Shown here piece by piece: positions 3,731-37,232 of a DNA stretch of 64,000 nucleotides (its first letter is position 1; each line of letters begins with the position of its first letter). The stretch lies in NCBI RefSeq assembly GCF_001677475.2, contig NZ_CP015229.1; one strand, 5' to 3'. Under the pieces are notes generated by a model. The model made no database searches and was not told where the DNA came from. It saw only the letters and a list, made by a program, of their open reading frames with translations. The DNA is from Escherichia coli (GTDB lineage Bacteria; Pseudomonadota; Gammaproteobacteria; Enterobacterales; Enterobacteriaceae). The position numbers and the translations under genes were made by a program.

Positions 3731-3777
3731 TCCTGTCTCCTGAGAGATTCAAAATTTGCGCGCGATAATATCACACT

Positions 3778-22351: not shown

Positions 22352-22475
22352 ATTTACTCCTTTCTAACATCACCAGGAAAAGTATAACGAATTGAAAATA
22401 CATTGTTTATAAAAACAGCAGGCGCGCGGTAATGGCTGGATTGCGACACGGAGTTACTTTATAATCCGCTACCAT

Positions 22476-22551
22476 GGCCCCTTAGCTCAGTGGTTAGAGC
22501 AGGCGACTCATAATCGCTTGGTCGCTGGTTCAAGTCCAGCAGGGGCCACCA
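22476..22551 (+). tRNA. ileX: tRNA-Ile (anticodon CAU, lysidine-modified)
   Basis: 76-nt sequence ggccccttagctcagtggttagagcaggcgactCATaatcgc...gggccacca folds as a canonical cloverleaf with CAT anticodon and encoded CCA; its 3' 46 nt are repeated at 36093-36141. Confidence 0.92.
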
Positions 22552-22554
22552 GAT
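22506..22554 (+). repeat. attL core (3' part of ileX plus 3 nt)
   Basis: Exact 49-bp identity with 36093-36141, read directly from the sequence. Confidence 0.85.
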
Positions 22555-22593
22555 TTCAATGAATTACAGATGTATCCAAACTATCTTGCTTTA

Positions 22594-22627
22594 CCAGGAT
22601 ACTTATAGGATACCTCTGAGAAGTATT
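22594..22627 (+). promoter_or_regulatory. Arm-type repeat near attL (AGGATAC motifs; candidate integrase/accessory-factor binding site)
   Basis: ccaggatacttataggatacctctgagaagtatt closely matches 35964-35997 near attR (29 of 34 positions). Confidence 0.45.
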
Positions 22628-22765
22628 AACAAGTAAGAATTGGCTCATGCCTACAGAACAGTTGGGTCGTAGCAGCCGTTCACCTGCGAACAAGAAAGTG
22701 CTACGGGTCTGAACTTTTGCCCCCAACTCTCCAAGAGACCGGCAAAAACCCTGACGGAGGTATCA

Positions 22766-22909
22766 ATGGATACTTTAAGAAAGGGCTCAGACCTGCTGTC
22801 TGCACGTGTGATTGCCGTTACAGGTTTAATCGCAGCACTTGGCAATTTAGGTCTATGCCCAATAGCCGTAGTGCTAGTATGTATAGCTTTAGTTATCATG
22901 CTGAAGTAA
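22766..22909 (+). CDS. 47-aa small hydrophobic membrane peptide (MDTLRKGSDLLSARVIAVTGLIAALGNLGLCPIAVVLVCIALVIMLK)
   Basis: Strong SD (ggagg) 6 nt upstream of ATG; followed by hairpin gcccagctttcgctgggc; a single predicted TM helix. Too short to be in the ORF track. Confidence 0.5.
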   Translation: MDTLRKGSDLLSARVIAVTGLIAALGNLGLCPIAVVLVCIALVIMLK

Positions 22910-23356
22910 TGACAGCGTAACAAGCTCGGCCCAGCTTTCGCTGGGCCTCCCATTTCTACCTCCCAAAATCTATTAGAAACAATAAGCCACTAAAGAAAGA
23001 GCTTTTGCTGGCTACAATACTCACATACAAACAATTTTTATTTTTCGCGGGCGTAAAAAAACGATGGGGCTGGCAGTCCGGAAGACGTCAGGGTACAGAG
23101 ATTTGTACCCGCCTCTCCCTGTGCATGAGCACAATAAGTAACCGAAGGCGGAATTCCGCCCTCGGTACTCACATATGAGAAACGATATTTCTTCCACCGA
23201 TACCCTTTATTTGGGTATCGCGAGTAAGCCCCAAAATCTGGGTGTTACTCTTACTACCCAAACTACGGGTAGTTTCCGTAGTTTCATGGTCGAGTTGCAG
23301 ATCTGCAACTCACCCACCAGCCAACGCAATTTTGCGTTATCGGGAATATCAGCAAG

Positions 23357-23641
23357 TTACCGCCGCAGTCGTTCCGGCTTCTTCCACTGGTAAGTATTTT
23401 TCGCGCTCTCCCTCCGTTGTTGAGAACGGCGACGGTATGCCAGCAACTCAAGGACTCTGATCCGTATGTCGCGCATATCCACGCCGTTAAGCTCGATACC
23501 GTCACGGCGCATCATCTCTGCCACCACACGCGCGTAATTTTCGGCTATCACGCTGTCCGGCTGCGTGGCCTCCTATTTGCTTGATGGTTGTTTGATTCCG
23601 GTAACGCGGCGGATTAATCCCAGCAATTCAGATTCTGTCAT
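23357..23641 (-). pseudogene. Amber-interrupted ORF downstream of terS (remnant of a packaging-module gene)
   Basis: MTESELLGLIRRVTGIKQPSSK, then in-frame TAG, then the 64-aa ORF 23357..23551 in the same frame; start overlaps terS stop. Confidence 0.35.
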
Positions 23642-23652
23642 AGTGCGCTACG

Positions 23653-23973
23653 TTACTTGTCTTTATTCGGCTGCAACTTATCCGGCACATTTCCGGTAGT
23701 TTCCATCAGGTAATCAGCCAGTATCTGTGGGAGGTTGTCGGCAACTCTGGCACTGGCATTACAGGCTTTAACCACTTCCCTTTTAAGCCCATCCAGCATA
23801 GCGGGGGTAATGTGTGGGAAGCTCCTTTGCATAGTAAGCGGGAGGCTGTCCATGATTGATGAAATCTGACTCGCCAGTTTTGAAAGCGCGTACATGCAAA
23901 ACTCTGTATCAATCACGTCACCGCGATCGCGCTCGTTTTTAAGTTCCTGCGCCTCCGCCTGTGCTGTCAGTAA
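23653..23973 (-). pseudogene. Small terminase subunit (lambda Nu1-like), C-terminal fragment separated from its N-terminus by the IS insertion
   Basis: Translation ...AQAEAQELKNERDRGDVIDTEFCMYALSKLASQISSIMDSLPLTMQRSFP... parallels lambda Nu1 C-terminal region (...AQADAQELKNARD...ETAFCTFVLSRIAGEIASILDGLPLSVQRRFP...) from memory. Confidence 0.7.
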
Positions 23974-24085
23974 TCTGATCCTGACTCGTAAGTATGAGAC
24001 GACAATAACTCAGTCCGCCTGGCGCCGATTATTCTGGCCGGTTTTGTAACCTGAGTGTCATTTACATGATCCAACAGGAAATGGC

Positions 24086-25465
24086 GTGACGCTCAATACT
24101 TCTCAGGTCAGTTACTATATGACTCAGCGTAAGAAAGGTATAACTCAGCATATCTCGGCCATGAAGGCTGGTATCTCAGTCCGTTCTGGTCGTCGGATCG
24201 AAAAAGGAGAGTGGGCAAAAAACAGTGTTCGGCACTGGCGCACACGCAAAGATCCTCTGGAAGCTGTGTGGGACAGCATGCTTGTTCCTCTGTTGAAAGA
24301 GAGGCCGGCTCTGACACCAACAACTCTACTGGAGATGCTACAGGATAAATATCCCGGCCAGTACCCCAACAGCCTTCGAAGAACAATGCAACGGCGGGTT
24401 CGCGAATGGAAACTACAGTATGGTACAGAGCAGGAGGTCATGTTCCGCCAGCAACATCAGCCCGGCCTGCGAGGCCTGTCGGACTTTACTGAACTGAAAG
24501 GTGTAGTTGTCACCATCGCCGGTAAGTTGTTGGCGCATAAGTTGTATCACTTCCGTCTGGAATGGAGCCACTGGAGCTGGATGCGGGTTGTTCTGGGTGG
24601 TGAGAGCTTCTCTGCTCTGGCTGAAGGCCTGCAGGAAGCCCTCGGACAACTGGGCGGAGTGCCGGTAGAACATAAAACGGACAGCCTGAGGGCAGCATGG
24701 AAACAACAGGGCGAAGATGGACGCCGCGAGCTGACTGAGCGTTATGCTACTCTCTGTCAGCACTACGGAATGCAGGGCGTACACAATAATGCCGGTCGGG
24801 GCCACGAAAATGGCTCGGTTGAAAGTGCCCACGGACATCTGAAAAGGCGTATCTGTCAGGCGCTGATACTGCGGGGCAGTAACGACTTCAGCACCATAGA
24901 AGAATATCAGGCCTTCATCACTCAGCAGGTTATGCGGCACAACCGTAACAATCAGGATCTGGTCAAGGAAGAACGTCTTCATCTGAAACCGCTGCCGCTT
25001 CGTCGCAGTGCTGACTATGATGAGCTGACTGTGAGGGTTAGTCGCAGCAGTACCATCAATGTGAAGCACGTCGTCTACAGCGTACCTTCCCGGCTTGTAG
25101 GTCAACTGTTACGGGTCAGGTTATGGGACGATCGTCTGAGCTGTTACGTTGGCAGCAGCGAGGTCATGAGCTGCCCTCGCGTCAGACCAGAAAAAGGGAA
25201 GACGCGGGCCCGTCGTATCGACTTCCGACATGTGATCGACAGTCTGGCAAAAAAGCCCGGTGCGTTCTGCCATGCAACGCTGAGAAATGACATCCTGCCG
25301 GACGATGAATGGCGGAGGCTGTGGCGTCGCTTATGTAATCATCTGGAGCCCGATATGGCAGGAAGGCTGATGGTACATGCCGGGAAACGTGGATCTGCAC
25401 CGGCTGATGCGCTTCCTGGGTATAAAAGAAAAGGCGTTGCCGGTAGTCAATGTGATACAGCATAA
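24086..25465 (+). CDS. istA: IS21-family transposase IstA
   Basis: 459-aa ORF (GTG start) with N-terminal HTH and DDE-type catalytic region; sits immediately upstream of an IstB-like gene. Confidence 0.8.
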   Translation: MTLNTSQVSYYMTQRKKGITQHISAMKAGISVRSGRRIEKGEWAKNSVRHWRTRKDPLEAVWDSMLVPLLKERPALTPTTLLEMLQDKYPGQYPNSLRRTMQRRVREWKLQYGTEQEVMFRQQHQPGLRGLSDFTELKGVVVTIAGKLLAHKLYHFRLEWSHWSWMRVVLGGESFSALAEGLQEALGQLGGVPVEHKTDSLRAAWKQQGEDGRRELTERYATLCQHYGMQGVHNNAGRGHENGSVESAHGHLKRRICQALILRGSNDFSTIEEYQAFITQQVMRHNRNNQDLVKEERLHLKPLPLRRSADYDELTVRVSRSSTINVKHVVYSVPSRLVGQLLRVRLWDDRLSCYVGSSEVMSCPRVRPEKGKTRARRIDFRHVIDSLAKKPGAFCHATLRNDILPDDEWRRLWRRLCNHLEPDMAGRLMVHAGKRGSAPADALPGYKRKGVAGSQCDTA

Positions 25466-25510
25466 CCTGAGCAGTTATGAGCAACTACTGCGTGGCAAGG
25501 GAGGTTCGCA

Positions 25511-26266
25511 GTGAGCAATATCCATCACCTTGAACATAGCCTGCGTAAACTACGCCTGACACGAGTTGGAGCTGAATGGCACGCTCTGGAAAAACGAGCG
25601 CTGGCAGAAGGCTGGACACCATCGCGCTATCTTCTGACGCTATGCAATGAAGAACTCCTGTGGCGCGAGAGTGAAAAACTGCGTCGTTATAAAAAGGAGG
25701 CCCGGTTGCCAGTTGCCAAAACGCTGAGCGAATACGACTTCAGTCAGGTGCCGGAACTGAATGGAGCTCAGTTCCGGCAACTCTGTGAAACGACAGACTG
25801 GGTTGATGCAGGAGAAAACGTTCTGCTGTTCGGAGCCAGCGGGTTGGGGAAAAGCCATCTGGCGGCAGCGATCGTGGATGGCGTAGTAGGTCAGGGCTAC
25901 CGGGCCCGGTTCTACAGCGCAGGAGAGCTGTTGCAGGAACTACGTAAAGCCAGAGCTCAGTTGAAACTGAATGAGCTGCTACTGAAACTGGATCGCTACC
26001 GGGTGATAGTGGTGGATGATCTTGGCTATGTCAAACGCGATAGTGCCGAAACGGGTGTGCTGTTCGAGTTAATAGCGCATCGCTATGAACGTGGGAGCCT
26101 GGTGATAACCAGTAACCATCCGTTCAGCATGTGGGGCAGCATCTTCGTGGATGAGACTATGGCGGTGGCTGCGGCAGACAGGCTGATCCATCACGGATAT
26201 ATGTTCGAACTGAAAGGGGAAAGCTACAGGAAAAAGACAGCGAAGGCAGTAACAAGCGCGACTTGA
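25511..26266 (+). CDS. istB: IS21-family helper ATPase IstB
   Basis: 251-aa ORF with Walker A (GASGLGKSHLA) and Walker B (VIVVDDLGY) motifs; RBS gggagg upstream of GTG start. Confidence 0.85.
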   Translation: MSNIHHLEHSLRKLRLTRVGAEWHALEKRALAEGWTPSRYLLTLCNEELLWRESEKLRRYKKEARLPVAKTLSEYDFSQVPELNGAQFRQLCETTDWVDAGENVLLFGASGLGKSHLAAAIVDGVVGQGYRARFYSAGELLQELRKARAQLKLNELLLKLDRYRVIVVDDLGYVKRDSAETGVLFELIAHRYERGSLVITSNHPFSMWGSIFVDETMAVAAADRLIHHGYMFELKGESYRKKTAKAVTSAT

Positions 26267-26325
26267 TGTCGCCCTGAAGGGTGCGGCCAGTATAGTTGGC
26301 GCGAGTCGGCAAAACTAGTTGACGT

Positions 26326-26526
26326 CTAATATCGTAAGAGTTCATCATCATCAATCTCGCCTTTGTCGTTTGTAAGCTGGCTAATTGCATTGTTAACCCT
26401 ATTGTCTATCACGCTGGCAACATCATAAAACGCCTCACGGCCTTTACGTTCAACGGGAGTCACTCCCCACTTGTCGAATGCTGTAGCACTTACCCGGCAG
26501 CTTTGCGCCATGGTTTTTTTGTTCAT
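26326..26526 (-). pseudogene. Small terminase subunit (lambda Nu1-like), N-terminal fragment truncated at the IS boundary
   Basis: MNKKTMAQSCRVSATAFDKWGVTPVERKGREAFYDVASVIDN... parallels lambda Nu1 N-terminus (MEVNKKQLADIFGASIRTIQNWQEQGMPV...); ORF ends exactly at the IS junction. Confidence 0.7.
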
Positions 26527-26639
26527 CAGGTGCGATTTCATCAATATCCCAACTTGGTCAAGGTTTCAGGTTGGTGTGTTGGTGTTATCTTTCCCTTTTT
26601 ATTCATGGAGATAGAGCAAACAACAAAACCACCACCACC

Positions 26640-26745
26640 CCCCTGAAAAAGCTCATAAATAGCGAAAAACCGCGAGGTCGCCGCCCCGTAACGGGTCCAT
26701 ATGCCGGAAAGGACCCGTAAAAAAAGCCGGATTTCTCCGGCCTTG
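26640..26745 (-). other. Lambda-type cos site (cosN with flanking terminase-binding region)
   Basis: Minus strand reads ACGGGTCCTTTCCGG...CGTTACG-GGGCGGCGACCT-CGCGGTTTTTCGCTATTTATGA, nearly identical to the phage lambda cohesive-end region as I recall it (GGGCGGCGACCTCGCGGGTTTTCGCTATTTATGAAAA); lies ~150 nt upstream of the Nu1-like start. Confidence 0.75.
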
Positions 26746-26747
26746 TC

Positions 26748-27161
26748 TCAGATGGTTTTCAGTATGCGATCGATGTCGCCATCATCGCCCGGGTTTCTGC
26801 CAGCGTATGCCATACCAGCTGATACGGCTTTCGGGCTGTGCATGTCCATAAAGTTTTCAAAGGCTGCGGTAAGCTCTGGTGCAACCTTCTGGCGTTCCTG
26901 CTCTATGGTCATGCTAAGGATGCTTTTAGCCGTACCAACATCGATACAAGGCACGTTTGCCATTGCACGTAACAGCGGCTGATAGTCGCCAGATTCATCA
27001 AGCGCCATAATCGCATCAGAGCGCGGCTTGTCCTTCTCTTCCAGGCTGTTAAGTTGATATACGGCCTCGTAGGTTGATAAACCTCTGTCAGCCATTGCCC
27101 GCGCTTCGGCCTTAAATTTACTCGCCAGCGGTAGCGTCATGATGCTTTCATTCGTTGCCAT
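26748..27161 (-). CDS. Hypothetical protein (137 aa) between decoration-like gene and cos
   Basis: ORF with no motif I recognise; co-oriented with capsid genes. Confidence 0.55.
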   Translation of the reverse strand: MATNESIMTLPLASKFKAEARAMADRGLSTYEAVYQLNSLEEKDKPRSDAIMALDESGDYQPLLRAMANVPCIDVGTAKSILSMTIEQERQKVAPELTAAFENFMDMHSPKAVSAGMAYAGRNPGDDGDIDRILKTI

Positions 27162-27173
27162 CGTTCCCTCTGC

Positions 27174-27509
27174 TTATCGGGCCAGTGGCTGAACGGATAC
27201 GCCAGAACCCGCAAAGGCGGCGCATTTTTTCGCATCGGTGTCGACGCTCTCAGGCCAGTTAACGGCGGCGATATTAAATATCCCCGTCTTATAGCACTGT
27301 GCTGATTTCTGCGTCGACGTGTCAACGGGGTACGAGGTCAGATAAACAGCCTTGCCAGATTCCTGACCATCCCACGGCTTAAACTCGCCATTTTCCGCCA
27401 GCATCAGCGGGGTAAATTCCTGAATAACTCCAGCATCAGCGGCAAAATGTACCAGCGTCGTGGATACCTGCTGACTGCCTGCAAATAACTCAATGTATGG
27501 AGTGTTCAT
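27174..27509 (-). CDS. Head decoration protein (lambda gpD-like)
   Basis: 111-aa ORF, size and position next to an E-like capsid gene match lambda D (110 aa); assignment by context and size, weak sequence recall. Confidence 0.6.
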   Translation of the reverse strand: MNTPYIELFAGSQQVSTTLVHFAADAGVIQEFTPLMLAENGEFKPWDGQESGKAVYLTSYPVDTSTQKSAQCYKTGIFNIAAVNWPESVDTDAKKCAAFAGSGVSVQPLAR

Positions 27510-27520
27510 AGAATCCCCCG

Positions 27521-28576
27521 TTAAGCAATTTTGACGGTAACAAATTTGCGAATATCTGCCGGTACCGGCTGCGGTGCGCTGTGCGTCTGCACGTACTCAA
27601 TCGCCGGATCGCCATCCTCAATCCAGTTTTTCGGGTAGTACATGTTTTGCGTTGCGCCAGTTCTTACCGCTTCCGGATCCATAATCGCACCATAGGCCAC
27701 CAGCCCTTTATTGTTAGTGTTGCCCAGGACAAGCAAATCAGGCTCAAGGAAATATTTTTCGGTGCCATCGCTGTCGGTGTATTTGCCGGAATAGACGATA
27801 AGGGCCAGATCACCCAGATAGCCTTTAAAGCTCACCACTTCGCCCAGGTTTTTACAGGCCAGCTCTGCGGCGGATTCTGAACCACGGGAAAGATCGTACA
27901 GTTCACGGAATTTTTTAAAGCTGCGTAACGTGCGCCATACCTCAGCGCCCATAATCATGACGTTGGCGGGGCAACCAGCCTGATCGGTGTATAGTTCGAT
28001 GTCATAGATTGGATCGTGTGTTTCCTTATCTGCCTCAGACCACTTTTTGCCCGATCCCTGCGTAATGATGTTTTTAGTCGGGATTTTCCAGTCGATTTCG
28101 TATCTATTTATTCCTTCGCCCTCAATGATGTTTTTTCCGGTCGTGACCGCATTCACCGCCAGCCATTCTATGCGAGCTTTAATAGCGTTTACCTGGCGGC
28201 GCATGTTGCCAGTAATCAGGCGCATACGGCGATAAGTTGGATCGTTAAGCTGTGCCGGATCTTCTCCAGCCATGCGCATGATGGTTTTTGATGGATCGAT
28301 TTCGTGTTTTGGTTTCATATAGCCAGGGCGGATAGTGCTTGTTTCGTACCCTTTATCGCGCTGAACCTGACTCCCCACCATAGGCGAACAAAAAGCCGAC
28401 ATGGTGACTTCTTCAATATCCAGGGTATCTAACATGATGTCCTGCGTGTTGAAGGTTGCCACGTTCGGGAAAAACAGCGACGTAAACAGCGGACTGAATT
28501 TAAATTCCGAAATATCCCCACGATTCAGGTACGCGAAAAGCTGGTTAGTGTTAAGTGCCGTTGCTTTGCCTGTCAT
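27521..28576 (-). CDS. Major capsid protein (lambda gpE-like)
   Basis: 351-aa ORF aligning along its length with lambda E from memory: FKFSPLFTSLFF / FKFDPLFLRLFF, PGYMKPKHEIDP / PGYVKPKHEVNP, YSGKY...LVLGNTNN...YPKNW / YSGQY...MVLGNTQA...YPKNW. Confidence 0.8.
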   Translation of the reverse strand: MTGKATALNTNQLFAYLNRGDISEFKFSPLFTSLFFPNVATFNTQDIMLDTLDIEEVTMSAFCSPMVGSQVQRDKGYETSTIRPGYMKPKHEIDPSKTIMRMAGEDPAQLNDPTYRRMRLITGNMRRQVNAIKARIEWLAVNAVTTGKNIIEGEGINRYEIDWKIPTKNIITQGSGKKWSEADKETHDPIYDIELYTDQAGCPANVMIMGAEVWRTLRSFKKFRELYDLSRGSESAAELACKNLGEVVSFKGYLGDLALIVYSGKYTDSDGTEKYFLEPDLLVLGNTNNKGLVAYGAIMDPEAVRTGATQNMYYPKNWIEDGDPAIEYVQTHSAPQPVPADIRKFVTVKIA

Positions 28577-28815
28577 TATTCACCCCCATGAGTCTGATTC
28601 ATGCCCAGCGCCGCGCGTAAATAGGCGCGTACCTGCCAGCCTGTTGACGGCTCAACCATCGCCAGCGGCTCAAGTCCTGCCGCAATGCCTGCTTTTACGT
28701 TCTGCTGGTGGCGTTCCTTGAGCGCCTCCACGATGTCTGGGCTTATGTAAACTGTCACCCCGCCTTTTTTCTCTTCTGCCATAGTCGGAAATTCCTCTTT
28801 GACGTTAAAAATCAC
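28576..28815 (-). CDS. Hypothetical small protein translationally coupled to the capsid gene
   Basis: 79-aa ORF (possibly starting at internal MAEEKK); stop shares one base with the capsid ATG. Confidence 0.5.
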   Translation of the reverse strand: MIFNVKEEFPTMAEEKKGGVTVYISPDIVEALKERHQQNVKAGIAAGLEPLAMVEPSTGWQVRAYLRAALGMNQTHGGE

Positions 28816-28846
28816 AACTGGATGTTCATCCAGTTGTGATTATAAT
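28811..28846. promoter_or_regulatory. Perfect 14-bp inverted repeat plus TATAAT box upstream of the capsid operon
   Basis: atcacaactggatg-tt-catccagttgtgat immediately followed by tataat; read directly. Confidence 0.45.
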
Positions 28847-28951
28847 CATGATTTCATTTTACGCAATAATGTTGAGTTGTGTTGCAAATTGTGAAATGAT
28901 TTCCGGCAACAGTAGTCACCATACTGTTAGATAAAAGCCTCATATGCAAAA

Positions 28952-29028
28952 GCCCGATAAGACCCTCTGACCTTATCGGGCTTTTTTTGGGGCATAAAAA
29001 AGCCGGACTTCTCCGGCTTCTGTTACTC
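28952..29028. terminator. Pair of intrinsic terminator hairpins between the SSB gene and the capsid operon
   Basis: gcccgataag...cttatcgggc followed by T-run; and gccggacttctccggc flanked by A-run / T-run (functional on minus strand). Confidence 0.55.
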
Positions 29029-29033
29029 GTTGC

Positions 29034-29456
29034 TTAAAACGGTATGTTATCCCCGTACGGATCATCGTTACCCGCCTGTTGTTTTGCCCTGTTCAGTGCG
29101 TCAGTAGCCTGCCCTTGCTGGCCTTTTTTGCCGCCCGGTCGCGCCGTTCTCGCACTGATTACGCTGTCTGCGATAACCTGCCAGCCCTGCCGCGTTTCGC
29201 CGTTCTGGCCTGTCCACTGGCTTACCTGCATGTTACCCGCCACGCTCACCAGTTCGCCTTTGTGGTGTTTTGCCAGTGCGTCGGCCTGTCTGCCAAACGC
29301 CAGGACGGATAACCACATCGTCGCCGTTCCGTCATCTGCCTGGCTGCACGGAAGGGGGACCGCCATACTAGCCATCGTCATTTGTGTACCCTTGCTGGTG
29401 GTCTTTAACTGCGGGTCAGCCACCAGCCGCCCGTAAGCCGCTATCTGTGCTGTCAT
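29034..29456 (-). CDS. Single-stranded DNA-binding protein (island-encoded SSB)
   Basis: 140-aa ORF; Gly/Gln-rich linker and acidic C-terminal tip ...DDPYGDNIPF resembling the SSB C-terminal DDDIPF motif. Confidence 0.75.
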   Translation of the reverse strand: MTAQIAAYGRLVADPQLKTTSKGTQMTMASMAVPLPCSQADDGTATMWLSVLAFGRQADALAKHHKGELVSVAGNMQVSQWTGQNGETRQGWQVIADSVISARTARPGGKKGQQGQATDALNRAKQQAGNDDPYGDNIPF

Positions 29457-29698
29457 GCTGTCTGCTCTCCGGTTTTAACGTTGATGGTTGTCACCTGTTC
29501 CGCTTCGGCAATCTCCCGTTCTGTCAGCGTGGCAAAGTTTGCAGCTGCCGTTGTCATGAATGCGCTAATCAGTTCGGGATGTGCTTTCGCATATCCTTCC
29601 CCGGCGTTGCGGTCGATGATTTTTATCGACACCCTTAACCAGTGTTCCGTCAAATCAAGGGCGTGCGATTGTGATTTTTTTGTGTGCTTCGCTGTCAT
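29453..29698 (-). CDS. Hypothetical protein (81 aa), coupled to ssb by ATGA overlap
   Basis: ORF directly downstream of the iteron array; no recognised domain. Confidence 0.5.
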   Translation of the reverse strand: MTAKHTKKSQSHALDLTEHWLRVSIKIIDRNAGEGYAKAHPELISAFMTTAAANFATLTEREIAEAEQVTTINVKTGEQTA

Positions 29699-29742
29699 AG
29701 GCTTTATCTCACAGCAGTAAATTAAAATTTTTGCGTTTTAAC

Positions 29743-29971
29743 CCTTCACCTGTTCACCTTTTGATATTTTCCATTTAAATTCATACTGTTAAGGGGTGAA
29801 CAGTTTCACAAAAACTATTCACCAACTGTTCACCACTGTTCACCCTTGAAGCTCAATAAACAACCAAAAAGGTGAACAGTGAATAGTTTGGTGAATAGTT
29901 CATAAATAACTGTTCACCCTATAATATACTGATATAAAAGATATTTATGACAGGGTGAACAGTGGTGAACA
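29743..29971. repeat. Iteron array (P4 ori/crr-type TGTTCACC octamers)
   Basis: Perfect TGTTCACC at 29751, 29827, 29837, 29911 and its complement GGTGAACA at 29795, 29871, 29954, 29964, plus degenerate copies (tattcacc, ggtgaata), within ~230 bp immediately 3' of the primase gene. Confidence 0.8.
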
Positions 29972-29985
29972 GTTATTCCATAAGT

Positions 29986-31803
29986 TTAATTTTTGCTATC
30001 GTCATTAGTGACTGATACACATGATGGCATCCAGTCTTCTGATTCCTCCGTCAGTGTCACGTTTGAACGTAAACCGTGCTTCGTTTTCCGTTTTATATAC
30101 TCCCTGCCATATTCCGCCATTGCCCCAGGCATATCTTTACCGAAGCGCGTCAGTGTTACAGGTTTACCAAACCCATGAGCCCTCATATAAGCCAGATAGG
30201 CATGATAGAGATACCTGCGCGGGCTGAATGGCACAATTTCAGCATTACCCACTAACAGGCCATCACACATTACCGACGCCATGAGATAGCCGCAGAAGTC
30301 CACCAGCGAATCCCCCTCTCGCTTTATCGCCAGTGCTTCTTCAGATTTCTGCTGCTCATATAACAGGCGTCTGGCTTCGTCCTGGTCAGCAAACCTTGTA
30401 AGCAGATGGCGAATCACTACCGCCAGCTCACCTTCTATTTTTTCCGCCAGCATCGGATCGCGTTCGTTCTCCGGTACAACTTCCGAAAAATTGAATATCA
30501 CCCGACGACGTGAGATCCCCCCGCTGCGGTCACTGAATGACATGGCGTTATTGTTAACCGCCAGCACTACTGCCGGAATACGCGTTGAGTAGGGGGCTTT
30601 GTGTTTCGGGTCAATTGCCACCTTGTCACCGCCTGTAATGGCCTTAATTCCTGCCCCATCACCAGCGTAGCGGGTCATATCCGGCATGATAATCAGCGAA
30701 AAGCCAACCACTAACGCGCGTTCCCTTGCATCTTCCAGCGCCTTCATGCTTGCCGATACTGTGTTGGCCTTACCCGCCAGCATGGTGCAAATCTCCGCCA
30801 TCACGCTTTTACCACTTCCCCCTGGACCTGTTACCTCAATGAATAACTGCCAGTCGTACCGGTTCGCCAGCACCATGAATAATGCAGCCAGTACGCGATC
30901 CGCCTTGCGGTCATTCTCAGCCACCGAACGGCGTAACCACTTCCAGAAATTCGGCGCATGTGTTGCCAGCGTTTCCCCCTCTGCTGGTGGGCTGAAAGGT
31001 AATTCACTGGCAATTAACAACCAGTCGTTTTTGTTATGCTCCCGAAAATTACCTGTTCTGGTATCAAATACCCCGTTACTGAATCCAATCAGGTTACGGG
31101 CTGTATTCCCCATTACAGGCAAACTTAACTTCATGGTATCGACCGCCGATTTAATGGCGTTCTGCGAATAGCTGATCTCCGCATCAATGAAAATCTGCGC
31201 CATAGCACGCTGTAACTCTTTATCCTGAACCGGCTCCCATACAACGCCGTTGTAATGGTGAACAGTGTCAGAGTCAGCATGAATCGCCAGTTCACCGCCA
31301 TAATGTGCCAGGAGAACTTCGCCGCGTTGACTTGCTCCCATCTGGTTAAGCGCCAGTGATGAAGCGTTATCGTCTTTTACCCGCTCTTTTTTCTTTACAG
31401 GCAGTTCAACTACCTTTTTCTTTTCCGCCAGCTCTGCCCGTTCACGTTCCAGATATTCGCGCCAGTTCTCCCGTTTCTGGCTGTGCATTCCTTCAGGATA
31501 ATAATCAGCATCCCTGACACCTGCCGCTGCCAGTTTCTGCCCGATGGTATTAACAAGCCCCGGACGCAATAACCCCGCCTGGTAGAGACGCACACGATAG
31601 CGTCCGTCCGGTACGATTTGCAGGTTGTCCAGTTCGGCAAGTTGTTGCTCTCCAAGCCAGACAGGAGGCACGTTATCGCCAGCCAGTCGCCCGTCCTGTT
31701 CCTGCCACTGCTTCGCATGTGCCCACGCATCACTACCCGCAAAAATGATGACTTCCGTCATTTTGTCACGTGGCTGGTGTTTTAAATTTGGCGCTTTTTT
31801 CAT
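29986..31803 (-). CDS. Satellite replication protein (P4 alpha-like primase-helicase, D5-type NTPase)
   Basis: 605-aa ORF (likely start MKKAP with ATGA overlap to upstream gene); Walker A GPGGSGKS; adjacent to TGTTCACC iterons. Confidence 0.75.
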   Translation of the reverse strand: MKKAPNLKHQPRDKMTEVIIFAGSDAWAHAKQWQEQDGRLAGDNVPPVWLGEQQLAELDNLQIVPDGRYRVRLYQAGLLRPGLVNTIGQKLAAAGVRDADYYPEGMHSQKRENWREYLERERAELAEKKKVVELPVKKKERVKDDNASSLALNQMGASQRGEVLLAHYGGELAIHADSDTVHHYNGVVWEPVQDKELQRAMAQIFIDAEISYSQNAIKSAVDTMKLSLPVMGNTARNLIGFSNGVFDTRTGNFREHNKNDWLLIASELPFSPPAEGETLATHAPNFWKWLRRSVAENDRKADRVLAALFMVLANRYDWQLFIEVTGPGGSGKSVMAEICTMLAGKANTVSASMKALEDARERALVVGFSLIIMPDMTRYAGDGAGIKAITGGDKVAIDPKHKAPYSTRIPAVVLAVNNNAMSFSDRSGGISRRRVIFNFSEVVPENERDPMLAEKIEGELAVVIRHLLTRFADQDEARRLLYEQQKSEEALAIKREGDSLVDFCGYLMASVMCDGLLVGNAEIVPFSPRRYLYHAYLAYMRAHGFGKPVTLTRFGKDMPGAMAEYGREYIKRKTKHGLRSNVTLTEESEDWMPSCVSVTNDDSKN

Positions 31804-32099
31804 TTCTGCTCTCTCCACGCGGCAATCATGTTTTTCAGTTCCTGTAGTTTTTTATCAACATCCATACATGACACATGGTTATTTCTGGAAGGCGGGATTT
31901 CCCGCCGGAATCTGCAAATAAAGATCTCCACGTTCAGCGAGCTATGAAATGAATAGCCATCACGAATAAAATACACACGGTCAAACATTATCGATTTTAC
32001 TGTTACTCTGTTGCCGTTCTTATCCCGATAAATAGCGCCGGGGATAATTTTGGGATGTGCATAACCGCTGGCAGTCAAGCCAGATAAATACGTTCTCAT
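31800..32099 (-). CDS. Hypothetical protein (99 aa)
   Basis: ORF translationally coupled to the primase gene; no recognised domain. Confidence 0.5.
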   Translation of the reverse strand: MRTYLSGLTASGYAHPKIIPGAIYRDKNGNRVTVKSIMFDRVYFIRDGYSFHSSLNVEIFICRFRREIPPSRNNHVSCMDVDKKLQELKNMIAAWREQK

Positions 32100-32105
32100 G
32101 ATTAT

Positions 32106-32426
32106 TTATCCCCGATTTGAATCAGTATTCGCTTTCTTTATGGCATTTAATGCATCTGTGGCATTTTCAATGGTGCACCGTAACGAAATATCAAAATGTC
32201 CAAGCATTGCCAGTAACAAACCGATATTACCCATATCAATGCGCATGGCCTTTTCGTCATAGTCCTCATTTTCTGACGCATGCCACATCAGGCTACCAAT
32301 TGACGCAACGGCCATTGATATATTGTCAGTCGCCCCATCCGCAGCGGAATAAACCTTTTTAGCAATATCATGCTCACAGTTAAAATGCGGATTAATCAGG
32401 TACTGGTAATTTGACATATCAGGCAT
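32106..32426 (-). CDS. Hypothetical protein (106 aa)
   Basis: ORF upstream of the 99-aa gene; lower GC than flanking island DNA. Confidence 0.5.
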   Translation of the reverse strand: MPDMSNYQYLINPHFNCEHDIAKKVYSAADGATDNISMAVASIGSLMWHASENEDYDEKAMRIDMGNIGLLLAMLGHFDISLRCTIENATDALNAIKKANTDSNRG

Positions 32427-32622
32427 GGCACACCCCCTGACGAATACGGGCGGCGAATACCATCACGCAGCCAGCCGGGGAGTGCTGGCGTGCTTCCTGT
32501 TCGCTGGTGGCCACGATGGTAATCACACGCGGTTTTGCGGCGCTCAGGGCGATAAAACGCCAGGCGAATTTATTCAGGTTGTGCGAATCCCGCCCTTGCG
32601 GGTGTATGGTATGATTTCTCAT
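32419..32622 (-). CDS. Small protein, possibly Icd-like (host cell-division inhibitor family of P4-like elements)
   Basis: 67-aa ORF MRNHTIHPQGRDSHNLNKFAWRFIALSAAKPRVITIVATSEQEARQHSPAGCVMVFAARIRQGVCHA; the family assignment is from memory of similar annotations and is tentative. The 334-aa ORF in the track is an upstream stop-free extension that looks non-coding. Confidence 0.45.
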   Translation of the reverse strand: MRNHTIHPQGRDSHNLNKFAWRFIALSAAKPRVITIVATSEQEARQHSPAGCVMVFAARIRQGVCHA

Positions 32623-32717
32623 AGCTACCTCGATACTCTCGTTATCGTTGGTGGTTAGAAGCCCTGCGAGTGGTAACGACACTTGCGGGGCTTTGTTTTT
32701 TGTTGCACTTACTGTTA

Positions 32718-32763
32718 ATGTACGTACGTAATATTGATGATAATAGGAGTTACGTACGTACAT
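32718..32763. promoter_or_regulatory. Twin palindromic operator (two copies of TACGTACGTA, 30 bp apart) in a divergent promoter region
   Basis: atgtacgtacgtaat at 32718-32732 and gttacgtacgtacat at 32749-32763; second copy overlaps the start codon of the RHH-like gene. Confidence 0.55.
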
Positions 32764-32953
32764 GTCAACATTAAAGCGGGATAAATCACCACGCGGCGAG
32801 GGATGGTCGCCGACATTCCAGATACGAATTAGCAAAGAACTACGCCAGCAAGTAAACGAGGCAGCAACCGCCGATGGCCTAACCCTCGGCAATTGGTTTA
32901 AAGAATTAGCTCGTGCCGAACTAAAGCGACGCGGCATTGAACCTAAAGGCTGA
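32762..32953 (+). CDS. Small DNA-binding protein, probable ribbon-helix-helix fold
   Basis: 63-aa ORF; TFQIRISKELRQQVNEAA... resembles a beta-strand plus helix RHH pattern; two short basic ORFs follow at 32957-33082 and 33138-33317. Confidence 0.5.
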   Translation: MSTLKRDKSPRGEGWSPTFQIRISKELRQQVNEAATADGLTLGNWFKELARAELKRRGIEPKG

Positions 32954-33429
32954 TGTATGACTGAAAAGCAGACCGATAACAAACTTTCTCTACCAGAGAA
33001 TAAACCAGCAGGCTTCTTACCAAGAAAAATCCTTGATGAGATCAAACGCCGCCAGCGGCGCAAGGCCAAAGAGCAGGAGTAACCATCACCAGCGCCGTGG
33101 TGCGGTGAACTGTGGCGCACAGGGTTACAGGTATCTACGATGACTGACAAATCATTAAAGAAATTATCCTCATCCAAGAAAAAACAACGCAAAAATGCGG
33201 TAAACGAACATGAACCGGAGAGATTCGCACCATGTGCGTTTATCCTTGAGAAGTACCTTAAAGAGTATTCTAGGAAAATACGCTCATTGCAGGCATGGCA
33301 GCGAATCGAGCCAGACTGATAGCATTGCCCACCAGCCAACAACCTGGTATTCTGGATATGCTCAAGTTTAGTGTTATGCCACTGGCGGCCCTCTGCGGTC
33401 GCCTTTGTTTTATGTGCCATCACTCCCCC

Positions 33430-33648
33430 TTACACCGTCTGCGTTCTGCGAGTGGATGCAAGATAAGCATCGAGATCAGTGCGCATATACAGCACTTTGC
33501 GCCCCAGCTTATGGAAAGGGATTTTTACCTTGCCAGTACAGGCCCAGTTCGCCAGCGTTTGATTGTTAACGCCAAGGTAGGCAGCAGCTTCAGCACGTGT
33601 AAGGCGGTCAGTTGATAAATCAGATTTCTTTAAATTCATATCTATCAC
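33430..33648 (-). CDS. alpA: AlpA/excisionase-family HTH regulator
   Basis: 72-aa ORF with LTRAEAAAYLGVNNQTLANWACTGKVKIPFHKLGRKVLY (MerR-like HTH_17 pattern). Confidence 0.75.
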   Translation of the reverse strand: MIDMNLKKSDLSTDRLTRAEAAAYLGVNNQTLANWACTGKVKIPFHKLGRKVLYMRTDLDAYLASTRRTQTV

Positions 33649-33709
33649 CGTGTACTTCTAAGTAACAACGGTGATAAATATCAATCAATGGGTATTTTGT
33701 TTTTAGCCC

Positions 33710-33786
33710 AATAGCCAGTTGCTGTGGGGAGGTTACCAGTTATTTAGCCTTAATAGCCAGCTATTAAGATACACTAGCCAGCTATT
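33710..33786. promoter_or_regulatory. Three TAGCCAG-containing operator-like repeats upstream of alpA
   Basis: aatagccagttgc (33710), aatagccagctatt (33752), ctagccagctattg (33773); plus inverted repeat atcaccgtg...cacggtgat at 33651-33682. Confidence 0.45.
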
Positions 33787-34507
33787 GGGGGTGAACAAGT
33801 TCAAACGAAGAATATTTATCAGGTCTTGGTGGTTGTGCTCCTGATTCTTTAATCCATTTATCCAGAGTGTTTTTACTTACTTTCCCATGATAGTAAACAG
33901 AAAGCTCGTTCAATAAACCTGTTTTACTGGCTTTAGGGTACTTTTCCCATGTTAGTTTAATTACGTGCATAACTTCATTGTAATAATGATTTCTTGGTTT
34001 GCGCGCTTTTTCTTTCTGTGATAAGGATAAAGCATCTTTTATTTTTTTATCTTTTTCATGGTTCGATATAATTTCTTCAAAAAAGTCATTAAGCAATAAC
34101 TCAACACCAACCCTAGTAAGTTTGTCTGCGTGATTACGCATTCCGACATGGTACAATGCAACTGCTGAATTTAAAGTATCGACAACCTGACAAGATAGTT
34201 TACTATCAAATATTAAAAAACCACATGAATCCATTCTTATAGCTAATTCAATAGGATATTGCTCGATTTCTCTTAATTCTAAACCATAACACAAAAGAAA
34301 TTCTCTTGTTGGATACTTTGATTTATAAAAATAATCTCTTATATCATCAATCAAGCGTTTTATAGCCTCTATGGTGGAGTTTTTCGGGGATAAAGATACA
34401 GGAACGTTTAAAACTGAAGAGTCTCGCCCACCAGTAATTAAATCATTCATAACCGAATAAATAATATATTGTTTGACCGATATATTGTTATCACCCATAT
34501 ATGTCAT
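33782..34507 (-). CDS. AT-rich orphan protein (241 aa) in the integrase-proximal cargo position
   Basis: Long ORF with visibly lower GC than the rest of the island; overlaps the int stop; no motif I can recognise. Confidence 0.6.
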   Translation of the reverse strand: MTYMGDNNISVKQYIIYSVMNDLITGGRDSSVLNVPVSLSPKNSTIEAIKRLIDDIRDYFYKSKYPTREFLLCYGLELREIEQYPIELAIRMDSCGFLIFDSKLSCQVVDTLNSAVALYHVGMRNHADKLTRVGVELLLNDFFEEIISNHEKDKKIKDALSLSQKEKARKPRNHYYNEVMHVIKLTWEKYPKASKTGLLNELSVYYHGKVSKNTLDKWIKESGAQPPRPDKYSSFELVHPQ

Positions 34508-35912
34508 TCTTTTCTTGTACTATAGCAAATAGTAAACGACGTTTTTCATCATCACTCATGCCCTCCAGTGCGGAAAGTAATTGCGCATCGATAGATTTTT
34601 TACTCTCCACCAGCCCGGCATGTTCCAGAATTGCCCGTTCTATCCGTGATGCTGGCTCCAGCAGTTCATCAGCACCGAAATGTAAATACCCCTGCGTTAC
34701 GTCGGCACTTCGCATAGTGCGGTGATTCATCAGGCGCTTGAGGATGTAATTACCCACGCCCACCAGCTCAGCAACCGTTCCGAACGTCCGGCGTGCGTCG
34801 TGCCACTTAAACGGGACAGGGAAGAGCATTTCATCGTTCGCCTCAGGAATGGTAGCCGCGCTTATCCGGTCTATGATGTGCCGTGTCTCCTGAATCACTC
34901 CCTTCACGCCAGGAAACACCAGCACATCATCAGCAGCTTTGTTTTTTAGCCTGCGAAGAAACATTTTCCGCAACGTATCAGTGATCGGCAGTTCAAGCGG
35001 ATCCCCGTTTTTCGTGGTGTCTATCCAGAAAAAGCGACCGCCCATATTCACGCGATCCCACGTAAGGCCAAAAACTTCTGATTTCCTCAGTCCGGTAAAC
35101 AGTGCCATTTCCACGGCATCACATACCGTAACAGCTATATCATCCCTTTCCTGTTCGCCCTGGTCGCGCACAGCAGCTACAGCAGCAAACCAGCGGGGAA
35201 AATCATGCAGGCGGATACGTTCCGTTTTTCTTACCGTTCCGTGCCACTGGCGCTTGGTGCTCAGTACCAGAGTCGGCGGATCCGGTAAAAGAGTATTACC
35301 CGCATCATCACGGTAATGATCATGCGCAAACCGACACACAGCACGTAGCGCACGCGCCCATAAATCGGCCTGTGCCTTGCTTCCTGTACCAACCCCAGCC
35401 CGTAACGTGGTTTTATCAGCACCGAACCATACAGCCCCATCAGTGATGGCCTTATGCCGTTGTTCCACCCGTTCGCGGGAAATACTGGCGAGGGTATGGG
35501 CCATCCAGTCACCGGAATAATTCTGTAATATGCTGCGGTACTGTTTTTCTGTGGAGGGTTTCAGGCGGTGGCCACGATTTTTTACGTAGGCGTCAATCGC
35601 CTCACTCAGCGTTATCATGGCCTTGTTGTTAGTGCGCTTTGCTATGTTCGGATTTATCCCCGTTGTGGCGACTTCGCCAAGGAGTTCCATAGCTTTAGCC
35701 CTGGCATTATCCACGCTCAGATCAGGAAAACGCCCCAGCGTTGCACGAATAAATTTTCCGTTACGCTTACGGGAAATGCAGAAACTTTTCACACCAGACG
35801 AACCTACACGGACACGCAGCCCGTTAACCTCCGTATCACCATATTCGACCTGTCCATGTTCCGGCGTTGGCAGTTCTGCAATTTTTACTTTAGAGAATCT
35901 GAATAATTTCAC
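34491..35912 (-). CDS. int: Tyrosine site-specific integrase
   Basis: 473-aa ORF from a GTG start; catalytic signature region (LRKSE..., WHDARRTFGT, ...QGYLHF) with an N-terminal arm-binding-like domain. Confidence 0.85.
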   Translation of the reverse strand: MKLFRFSKVKIAELPTPEHGQVEYGDTEVNGLRVRVGSSGVKSFCISRKRNGKFIRATLGRFPDLSVDNARAKAMELLGEVATTGINPNIAKRTNNKAMITLSEAIDAYVKNRGHRLKPSTEKQYRSILQNYSGDWMAHTLASISRERVEQRHKAITDGAVWFGADKTTLRAGVGTGSKAQADLWARALRAVCRFAHDHYRDDAGNTLLPDPPTLVLSTKRQWHGTVRKTERIRLHDFPRWFAAVAAVRDQGEQERDDIAVTVCDAVEMALFTGLRKSEVFGLTWDRVNMGGRFFWIDTTKNGDPLELPITDTLRKMFLRRLKNKAADDVLVFPGVKGVIQETRHIIDRISAATIPEANDEMLFPVPFKWHDARRTFGTVAELVGVGNYILKRLMNHRTMRSADVTQGYLHFGADELLEPASRIERAILEHAGLVESKKSIDAQLLSALEGMSDDEKRRLLFAIVQEKNDIYG

Positions 35913-35935
35913 TCATACACCCCACCAAGCGATCT

Positions 35936-35997
35936 GGTATCCTGGAAAATCGCTTGTTCTGCTCCAGGATACCTATAGGATACCGTAAAGAAGTATT
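35936..35997 (+). promoter_or_regulatory. Arm-type repeats near attR, directly upstream of the integrase start
   Basis: ggtatcctgg / ccaggatacc inverted pair plus tandem GGATACC copies and the block shared with 22594-22627. Confidence 0.45.
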
Positions 35998-36092
35998 TTG
36001 GGGTATATACAGGTATTTATACAGTAGTTTTAAAAAATGCTAAGGTATTGAAAAGTATCGCTAAGTATCTGTAAGTAAAGGGTTATCAACCA

Positions 36093-36141
36093 ACTCATAA
36101 TCGCTTGGTCGCTGGTTCAAGTCCAGCAGGGGCCACCAGAT
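36093..36141 (+). repeat. attR core (displaced partial copy of tRNA-Ile 3' end)
   Basis: 49-bp exact copy of 22506-22554; upstream sequence is not tRNA-like, so this is not a functional tRNA. Confidence 0.85.
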
Positions 36142-36191
36142 ATAGCAAAGGCTGACGAGAAATCGTCAGCCTTTTTCTTTTTATATATCAG

Positions 36192-36956
36192 TTACTTTGC
36201 GTGCCAGTAAGCCGCTGCACGTACCCGCTGTGGATCATACTGTTCCGCTTCAAAGCGGCGGCTTAAATTCTTAACGACTTTGCCTTCGCCGGTTATCCAG
36301 ATGAAGTAATCATCGGCAGGGATTTGCATCTGCGCCAGACGCGCATCTACTGCCTGCTCATCATGTGCCAGCCATTCGATATTAAAACCATCAAGGTGCG
36401 CGAGATAATCCTGACAGGCGTTATCCCGCACGCTAACCAGCGCACTAACTTGCGGTTTAACGGCAAGTTTGCTCAACGTTTCCAGGCGGCGGCGCAGTGC
36501 GGGCATTCCGGATTCATCGCAGACATACAGCTGATACGCGTAATCTTCCGGCACCACCAGCGAACCGCGGGGACCTGCCACCGTGAGTTTATCGCCCGGT
36601 TGCGCCTGCATTGCCCAGCTGCTGGCGACGCCACCTTCGTGAATAAAGAAATCAATCGCCAGTACATGGCGTAGTTCGTCATACAGCGGTGTATAGTCAC
36701 GCGACGGTGGGCGTGGTCCTTCCGGCCAGACGATGCCCTCTTCCGTTACTGTTGGCGGCACAAAGTGAGCATCAGATTGAGGAAAGAAGAGTTTGCTGTG
36801 ATCGTCAAAGCCGCGCGATGTAAAACCGTCCAGCGCCTCGCCGCCAAAGACAATGCGCTGAAAACCGGCGCTAATACGCTCAACGCGTAGCACAGTCAGT
36901 TCACGGAAGCGCAGATCATTGCGAACGCGCTGCGGGTAGCGGGGGGAGTTATTCAT
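36192..36956 (-). CDS. yqjH: NADPH-dependent ferric-siderophore reductase (siderophore-interacting protein)
   Basis: 254-aa ORF, FAD-binding/ViuB-like; divergent from yqjI. Confidence 0.88.
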   Translation of the reverse strand: MNNSPRYPQRVRNDLRFRELTVLRVERISAGFQRIVFGGEALDGFTSRGFDDHSKLFFPQSDAHFVPPTVTEEGIVWPEGPRPPSRDYTPLYDELRHVLAIDFFIHEGGVASSWAMQAQPGDKLTVAGPRGSLVVPEDYAYQLYVCDESGMPALRRRLETLSKLAVKPQVSALVSVRDNACQDYLAHLDGFNIEWLAHDEQAVDARLAQMQIPADDYFIWITGEGKVVKNLSRRFEAEQYDPQRVRAAAYWHAK

Positions 36957-37232
36957 TGTTATCGCCTTCGTGATAGTAATAAGATATATCTAAATAAATT
37001 TCGTAAATGATAATGATTGTTAATCATGATAAATGCAAGCGATTTGTAGAACTGATACATCTGAGGTATGAGAAGACATTCAACGTCGTAGAAAGGCTGG
37101 CGGATGCGGCGTGAACGTATTATCCGGCCTGGATGTGAGGTGCATTCACGTTTAAAAATCATTTTTATACTTGCAAGAGCGCTCATGTCAGATATAAATT
37201 AGATATATCTAATTAAGCAAAAGGAGGCTGAT

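Follow-up and report, generated by a model that had tools for sequence, protein, structure and literature searches.

The closest described relative of the element studied here, a genomic island in a 64,000-nucleotide (nt) stretch of Escherichia coli DNA (contig NZ_CP015229.1, assembly GCF_001677475.2; hereafter the window), is EcCICFT073, the prototype of the Gram-negative cos-type phage-inducible chromosomal islands (PICIs; Fillol-Salom et al. 2018). EcCICFT073 encodes capsid (c1499) and decoration protein (c1500) homologues, and its induction is triggered by a helper phage and depends on AlpA; the induced helper switches on alpA (PMC6092414). An iteron-type origin following the primase has been described for EcCICFT073 and PICIs, and the pri-ori segment of EcCICFT073 alone replicates a plasmid (PMC6092414). 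Our subject is the pair of small genes, encoding proteins of 106 and 99 amino acids (aa), that precedes the primase of the window island.

Two further systems bear on this pair. RgdR (ECs1581), encoded by the prophage-like element Sp7 of E. coli O157:H7 Sakai (O-island 51, PICI EcCIEDL933), activates LEE1 of the enterocyte effacement locus (LEE) independently of Ler, represses motility, raises Congo-red binding, and binds DNA weakly and non-specifically (PMC3378721). A natural R20C variant, in which the RGD motif is altered, has lost both type III secretion system activation and DNA binding (PMC3378721, PMC10877973). RgdR has been reported to be encoded by all analyzed E. coli PICIs. In strain ECOR61, six linked prophage genes, the first Icd-like and the last encoding a DNA primase, were needed to reconstitute cell death upon expression of the T7-like orf24; suppressor transposon insertions hit the Icd-like gene and the two small genes after it (Silas et al., bioRxiv 10.1101/2023.04.06.535777).

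We found that the 99-aa protein is, as judged from its alignments, a divergent member of the RgdR family, and that the 106-aa protein is a conserved hypothetical protein of satellite islands. We assign a probability of about 0.55 to a composite explanation, in which both are helper-induced genes of a PICI early operon, the 99-aa protein being an RgdR-like transcription modulator and the 106-aa protein a protein-binding helical protein that occupies a variable slot. Our confidence in the identity and context of the genes is high; in the molecular mechanism it is low.

Two coding genes in front of the primase

The genes at this locus are as follows.

29986-31803, minus strand: PICI primase/replication initiator (D5_N, DUF5906, Pox_D5), translationally coupled to the 99-aa gene, from the open reading frame (ORF) list, family scans, and RefSeq
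31800-32099, minus strand: 99-aa gene of the DUF4222/RgdR family, PGA clade, basic product, from PF13973, the ECs1581 alignment, and an AlphaFold2 (AF2) model
32106-32426, minus strand: 106-aa gene, phrog_15327, predicted acidic two-helix hairpin protein, from the ORF list, the PHROG match, and an AF2 model
32419-32622, minus strand: Icd-like gene of 67 aa, first in the early operon, from NF033153 (E 9.3e-18) and the RefSeq annotation

A sequence-only reading of the window had described two ORFs of 106 and 99 aa co-oriented with the primase, and the ORF list confirmed both. The ATGA overlap that it had proposed between the 99-aa gene and the primase can be read at 31800-31803, where tcat is ATGA on the minus strand: the TGA of the 99-aa gene (31802-31800) overlaps the ATG of the primase (31803-31801). 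This ATG is the start used by RefSeq in the 99.9%-identical locus of TUM1886, while the first in-frame start given by the ORF lister is a GTG at 31818. The two small genes are separated by 6 nt. The ATG of the 106-aa gene lies inside the end of the Icd-like ORF, resulting in an 8-nt overlap with the Icd-like stop. A 334-aa ORF at 32419-33423 is the Icd-like frame extended upstream to a GTG; we rejected it as spurious, and RefSeq annotates the 67-aa gene. The lower GC content noted earlier for the region was likewise found, with 0.416 for 31800-32426 as compared with 0.51 for the primase, 0.583 for the Icd-like gene, and 0.48 for the whole island.

Shine-Dalgarno-like motifs precede the starts of the 106-aa gene, the 99-aa gene, and the primase. 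Among five alleles, the pairwise ratio of nonsynonymous to synonymous substitution rates (dN/dS) ranged from 0.11 to 0.32 in the 106-aa gene and from 0.17 to 0.55 in the DUF4222 gene; for the two genes together, the allele pairs with appreciable divergence gave 0.11-0.33. Such ratios point to purifying selection on the 106-aa gene. By blastn, the 106-aa gene was detected in 473 of 5,426 complete E. coli genomes (about 9%), and the 99-aa allele in 470. Because of the family matches described below, the occurrence in about 470 of the 5,426 genomes, the low dN/dS, and the Shine-Dalgarno-like motifs, both ORFs are genes and not chance reading frames.

The 99-aa protein belongs to the RgdR family

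The 99-aa protein matched Pfam DUF4222 (PF13973) over residues 16-67 with 65.8 bits (cut-off 27; E 2.5e-18). BLASTP against ECs1581 yielded an ungapped alignment over 99 of 99 residues, with 31% identity and an E value of 5e-14. RgdR is also a basic protein of 99 aa with the same Pfam domain. Its gene overlaps the primase gene ECs1582 by 4 nt, as does the DUF4222 homologue of CFT073, which is the arrangement seen in the window. The two loci differ in two respects. RgdR contains the RGD motif and has ECs1578-1580 upstream, whereas the window protein has PGA at residues 20-22 and the 106-aa gene upstream. In full-length DUF4222 homologues, the motif counts were RGD 64, PGA 15, NGD 12, PGD 10, and CGD 4, in an alignment that also took in three homologues of the 106-aa protein, the source of a few odd entries. 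The identity between the PGA clade and the RGD clade was 30-42%. These comparisons lead us to classify the 99-aa gene as a divergent RgdR-family member of a distinct clade, and the term "orphan" given to it earlier no longer applies.

The isoelectric point (pI) of the 99-aa protein is 9.9 and its net charge is +8. Its AF2 model has a mean predicted local distance difference test (pLDDT) score of 78.5, exceeding 90 over residues 21-60. The model predicts an SH3-like barrel of four to five strands (residues 23-56), then a short helix, and at the C-terminus a long helix (78-98). Fold searches with this model pointed to Tudor/KOW domains; Foldseek pointed to the Spt5 KOW, with no match at E <= 0.001. 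The protein had no match among the PDB sequences at E <= 10. The predicted Tudor/KOW likeness is at the level of the fold only; a module that binds nucleic acid or polymerase would fit it, but neither function is proved by it. PADLOC defence models matched neither the 99-aa and 106-aa proteins nor their neighbours.

The 106-aa protein and its slot

The 106-aa protein matched phrog_15327 end to end (E 2e-71), while Pfam, NCBIfam, and PADLOC gave no match and the PDB sequences none at E <= 10. A word-indexed search retrieved 19 clusters, nearly all from E. coli. An exhaustive phmmer search of 1.84 billion representatives yielded only 15 matches, of which three long repeat proteins (TPR_12, Ig-like) were discarded as repeat or compositional artefacts. 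Three remote homologues (42, 36, and 29% identity) were found, each in another satellite with an integrase and AlpA, where they belong to a block of small genes upstream of other replicases (AAA_25, DUF927, zinc-ribbon/Toprim). The 106-aa gene is thus not an orphan either but a conserved hypothetical gene with remote homologues in other satellites.

In E. coli, the gene lies between an Icd-like gene and a PGA-clade DUF4222 gene, in EcCICFT073-type PICIs and in capsid-forming PICIs (cf-PICIs), at several integration sites. It adjoins the PGA-clade DUF4222 allele in all records listed in both searches except CFS3292. The protein has a pI of 4.8 and a net charge of -7, as compared with a pI of 11.3 for its Icd-like neighbour. 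The AF2 model (pLDDT 77) predicts helices at residues 19-51 and 58-105; searches with this hairpin returned no informative structural match. We rejected a membrane protein on account of the net charge and a maximum 19-residue Kyte-Doolittle hydropathy of 1.47. In some assemblies (proteins P0001 and P0057), the 106-aa ORF is joined in frame to the Icd-like ORF (...ARIRQGCAMPDMSNY...). Other islands contain a second Icd-like gene of 154 aa directly before the 106-aa gene (7314-7778 in one extract). This longer form is similar to the effector reported for ECOR61, an Icd-like protein with an N-terminal extension.

In Sp7 and CFT073, three or four other genes for small helical proteins fill this slot. 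The slot gene blocks lie in the locus extracts as follows.

Sp7 extract, 3691-4299: slot genes
CFT073 extract, 4050-4940: slot genes
Extract of a further island, 6293-6490: slot gene

One slot family comprises Sp7 ECs1579, a 76-aa protein of CFT073, and a 65-aa protein of the further island; a second comprises ECs1580 and a 77-aa protein of CFT073. The stretch between the Icd-like gene and DUF4222 is a shuffled set of interchangeable small, mostly helical proteins across islands.

The host island is an EcCICFT073-type PICI

Perfect 49-bp direct repeats delimit a 13.6-kb island between tRNA-Ile2 and nfeF. The tRNA at the attachment (att) site has the anticodon CAT; ARAGORN labels it Met and RefSeq labels it tRNA-Ile. 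The island measures 11 kb without and 13.6 kb with an IS21-family insertion. Its landmarks outside the early operon are given below.

22506-22554, plus strand: attL, 49-bp repeat, 3' part of tRNA-Ile2(CAT), from the direct-repeat match
24086-26266 (plus strand) and 26326-26544 (minus strand): terS interrupted by an IS21-family element (istA, 459 aa; istB, 251 aa)
29792-29974: iterons GGTGAACAGT, putative origin (ori), in an AT-rich stretch directly 3' of the primase stop
32762-32953, plus strand: divergent YlcI/YnfO (Arc-like) small regulator gene, from family scans, RefSeq, and the CFT073 comparison
33430-33648, minus strand: AlpA-type HTH_17 activator/excisionase-like gene, from family scans
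34491-35912, minus strand: tyrosine integrase, from the ORF list and RefSeq
36093-36141, plus strand: attR, identical 49-bp repeat, from the direct-repeat match

From the right end, the order is integrase, a 241-aa gene, the AlpA-type gene, YlcI/YnfO (plus strand), Icd-like, 106-aa, DUF4222, and primase. An 81-aa gene, the single-stranded DNA-binding protein (SSB) gene, a 79-aa gene, a lambda E-like major capsid gene, a decoration protein gene, a 137-aa gene, and a terS fragment follow. Apart from the IS21-family pair, all genes are on the minus strand except the divergent YlcI/YnfO gene. The stretch at 29792-29974 contains four copies of GGTGAACAGT(G/T), with a local GC content of about 0.37-0.40. 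Family scans of the regulatory and replication genes returned AlpA, the Icd-like gene, and the D5-type primase only.

The island thus carries the features by which PICIs are recognized: int, alpA, pri-rep with an iteron ori, an att site, and packaging genes, with a size in the 11-15 kb range and no tail or lysis genes. Its gene order is shared gene for gene with EcCICFT073, through int, AlpA, the divergent YlcI/YnfO, Icd-like, small genes, DUF4222, primase, SSB, capsid, and decoration protein. The att repeats, the gene content, the shared order, and the iterons after the primase make the host element an EcCICFT073-type PICI and not a P4-like satellite. Unlike the window island, which lies at tRNA-Ile2, EcCICFT073 is integrated at the roxA/phoQ locus with another integrase, and it carries a PerC gene that the window island lacks. 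The slot holds four genes of 73-77 aa in EcCICFT073 and the single 106-aa gene in the window. A further difference is the interruption of terS by the IS21-family element, because of which the window copy may be defective in packaging and transfer; the 99.9%-identical TUM1886 island is free of the insertion and has an intact terS.

The 241-aa gene between int and alpA (33782-34507, minus strand) has a very low GC content (0.325), and Pfam, NCBIfam, PHROGs, and PADLOC gave no match to it; the island may carry it as an accessory or cargo gene.

Control region of the early operon

Two elements were located upstream of the Icd-like gene.

32740-32768, minus strand: sigma-70-like early promoter, TTGACA-17-TATTAT, with 11 of 12 consensus matches
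32658-32694, no strand assigned: conserved 15-pair leader hairpin of the early operon, from the comparison across PICIs

A perfect 14-bp inverted repeat, ATGTACGTACGTAA ... TTACGTACGTACAT, flanks the promoter and covers the -10 element (window 32700-32790). This repeat looks operator-like and is possibly a target of the divergent YlcI/YnfO (Arc-like) protein. The leader hairpin is kept in CFT073, in two other E. coli PICIs, and in one metagenomic satellite, with two compensatory pair changes. As a plus-strand RNA, it has a folding energy of -30.3 kcal/mol (z -3.6). A T-run after the hairpin on the plus strand gives it the look of a terminator; the T-run is weak in the other islands. The hairpin matched no Rfam family.

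We found no minus-strand terminator-like sites between the early promoter (32768-32740) and the primase. By spacing and the missing terminator, the genes from Icd-like to primase are operon-like. Since the junctions are tight (8-nt overlap, 6-nt gap, and ATGA overlap), the proteins would be made together once the island is on.

Comparison with P4 and P1

In P4, the order is ORF88/Vis, the 'cI'/Ash ORF, epsilon (8-nt overlap), orf151 (8-nt overlap), orf106 (DUF5375), and the alpha primase. Like the window island, the left operon of P4 thus has small genes between an Ash/Icd-like ORF and the primase, an 8-nt first junction, and an AlpA/Vis-type gene upstream. The 106-aa gene occupies the position of epsilon, as the first gene after the Ash/Icd-like ORF and upstream of the primase. 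In the immI operon of P1 (c4 RNA, icd, ant), translational coupling joins an Icd-family ORF to the gene after it, which encodes the anti-repressor.

The earlier proposal was that one or both small proteins are helper-manipulating factors like P4 epsilon, acting as anti-repressors of the helper repressor or interfering with the helper. The positional analogy behind it is sound, down to the same 8-nt overlap, and a small, acidic, helical 106-aa protein would suit a protein-binding inhibitor. Moreover, related satellites have Bro-N/AntA anti-repressor-like genes in the same operon, and EcCIMP1 has a conserved 'antirepressor' gene beside an Ash gene and the primase. The analogy did not extend to the element or to the proteins. 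The element is a PICI, and the RefSeq annotation of the 99.9%-identical TUM1886 island contains none of Psu, Sid, Delta, epsilon, and an alpha-type primase. The P4 small proteins and the window pair have no sequence relation: neither window protein matched the epsilon family PF25738 (Derepression protein), which epsilon itself matches with 170 bits. The comparison of the 106-aa family with epsilon by hhalign gave a probability of 0.2%, and BLASTP found nothing. The hhalign probabilities of the window small proteins were 10.9% against orf151 and 0.1% against orf106, so that a PGxIYR resemblance between DUF4222 and orf151 was not accepted.

With regard to P1, an Rfam scan of window positions 22000-37000 (E <= 1) for RNAs of the P1 C4 or P4 CI type returned a tRNA and chance-level matches only, and C4 RNA thus has no counterpart by Rfam in this region. 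The 106-aa protein resembles no Pfam or NCBIfam model, and thus none of the anti-repressor families held in those libraries. Furthermore, the 99-aa gene is a member of another family, whose documented activity is different. In EcCICFT073, control runs the other way, with the induced helper activating alpA, so a derepressor is not required. An epsilon-like function of either protein is therefore very doubtful to us.

Comparison with the ECOR61 cell-death operon

Like the window operon, the ECOR61 operon has an Icd-like gene at its head and the primase at its end, with tightly overlapping small genes in between. The three genes hit by the insertions, of which the two small ones measure 61 and 63 aa, have the sizes and overlaps (8 nt and 1 nt) of Sp7 ECs1577-1579, which lie upstream of RgdR and the primase. 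From these coordinates, the ECOR61 operon would be equivalent to the Sp7-type layout. The ECOR61 phenotype suggests that the stretch from the Icd-like gene to the primase could be an abortive-infection or superinfection-exclusion device, with the Icd-like protein as the toxic effector and the small proteins sensing or gating phage proteins. The suppressor insertions in ECOR61 agree with such a device, as does the joining of the 106-aa gene to the Icd-like gene, by an 8-nt overlap in the window and by fusion in some assemblies.

The likeness to the window is limited by several differences. The small genes of ECOR61 belong to the Sp7 type and have no homology to the 106-aa gene, and the ECOR61 Icd-like protein has a long N-terminal extension that the window protein lacks. 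The transposon insertions may be polar, the Sp7 equivalence rests on coordinates, and the PADLOC models gave no match. We regard a dedicated device of this kind in the window as unlikely. By analogy, an interference role of the Icd-like-to-primase operon as a whole would have indirect support.

DUF4222 beside replication initiators

From island to island, the PGA-clade DUF4222 gene is followed by differing replication genes and in every case overlaps with them. In RefSeq, these genes are named "DNA primase family", "DUF927", and "primase-like DNA-binding domain". In a phage collection, RgdR as the tblastn query (E <= 1) gave weak matches in 99 temperate phages; the two window genes, searched in the same collection as DNA and by tblastn, had no match at E <= 1e-3. 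In the lambdoid phages SfIV and vB_EcoS-733R5, the matches correspond to an unannotated DUF4222 ORF of 59-73 aa (PF13973, E about 1e-19). This ORF runs in another frame across the 3' half of a YmfM-like gene and ends 11 nt inside an O-like (HTH_36) replication gene. A further hidden ORF was found in the e14 prophage of K-12, where it likewise precedes an O-like (HTH_36) initiator.

SfIV extract, 3438-3659: hidden DUF4222 ORF
vB_EcoS-733R5 extract, 3480-3659: hidden DUF4222 ORF
NC_000913.3, about 1204001-1204180 (extract 4502-4681): hidden DUF4222 ORF in the K-12 e14 prophage, inside ymfM

Over the overlap, e14 and phage 733R5 showed 88% identity when read in the DUF4222 frame, against 48% for the ymfM frame. 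Because the DUF4222 ORF is embedded in ymfM and better conserved than the ymfM frame, the published filamentation phenotype of ymfM (the e14 'cell division inhibitor') could involve either frame.

The constant feature of the family is the location of DUF4222 directly 5' of a replication initiator of any type. This coupling could be explained by a replication accessory function, in which DUF4222 is an origin-remodelling or loader-like protein kept in a fixed ratio to the initiator and the acidic 106-aa protein is its partner or chaperone. The invariable place of DUF4222 in front of at least three unrelated initiator types (D5-type, DUF927, and O-like HTH_36), often with overlapping codons, speaks for such a function, as do its basic character and the non-specific DNA binding of RgdR. 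The tight linkage of PGA-clade DUF4222 with the 106-aa gene, and their complementary charges of +8 and -7, would fit a partnership. The results from EcCICFT073 point in the opposite direction: because its pri-ori segment suffices, with no upstream genes, for plasmid replication, DUF4222 is probably not an essential replication factor. In addition, the documented RgdR phenotypes are transcriptional, and DUF4222 does not follow the remote 106-aa homologues. A replication accessory role therefore seems improbable.

A broader proposal takes DUF4222 as a general Tudor/KOW-like companion of mobile-element initiators of the D5, DUF927, and O types, in PICIs, cf-PICIs, and lambdoid phages, the e14 ORF included. 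With the onset of element replication, DUF4222 would reprogram host transcription or nucleoid proteins, and the virulence effects of RgdR would be a by-product. The 106-aa hairpin would then be a clade-specific partner or antagonist that tunes DUF4222 or senses a phage protein. We hold this proposal to be a speculative one with a low chance of being correct.

Proposed roles of the pair

In the composite explanation that we prefer, the early operon would comprise the promoter/operator, the leader hairpin, Icd-like, 106-aa, DUF4222, primase, the 81-aa gene, and SSB. Once AlpA or a helper phage turns the island on, both small genes would be expressed along with the primase. By analogy with RgdR, the 99-aa protein would most likely modulate host or island transcription in a sequence-nonspecific way, and may do so through contacts with DNA or the transcription machinery instead of one specific operator. 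Having PGA in place of the essential RGD, it is unlikely to activate LEE1. The 106-aa protein most likely binds another protein, either one of its basic neighbours or a factor of the helper or a competing phage.

Three points weigh against this explanation. The RGD motif needed for LEE activation and DNA binding by RgdR is absent, and the activities of RgdR may thus not transfer to the window protein. The replication of a plasmid by the EcCICFT073 pri-ori segment alone leaves the role of DUF4222 in the island unexplained. Finally, for the PGA-clade pair, transcription modulation and protein binding are roles that we infer.

Significance

The finding is real, yet largely explained by existing knowledge, since the pair consists of a divergent member of a known regulator family and a conserved hypothetical gene in a known kind of satellite. 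Its importance is modest: two 'orphans' are relabelled as a divergent RgdR-family gene and a conserved uncharacterized gene of the PICI early operon. The by-products of most interest are the DUF4222 ORF hidden in ymfM and the fixed coupling of DUF4222 to replication initiators. Three results can serve annotation and PICI biology. One is the mosaic that small genes for interchangeable helical proteins form between the Icd-like gene and the primase. The cell-death phenotype of the equivalent ECOR61 operon makes the small genes testable candidates for phage-phage or satellite-phage conflict. The fixed, coupled position of RgdR-type genes before unrelated initiators points to a role in the life cycle of islands and phages rather than in virulence regulation.

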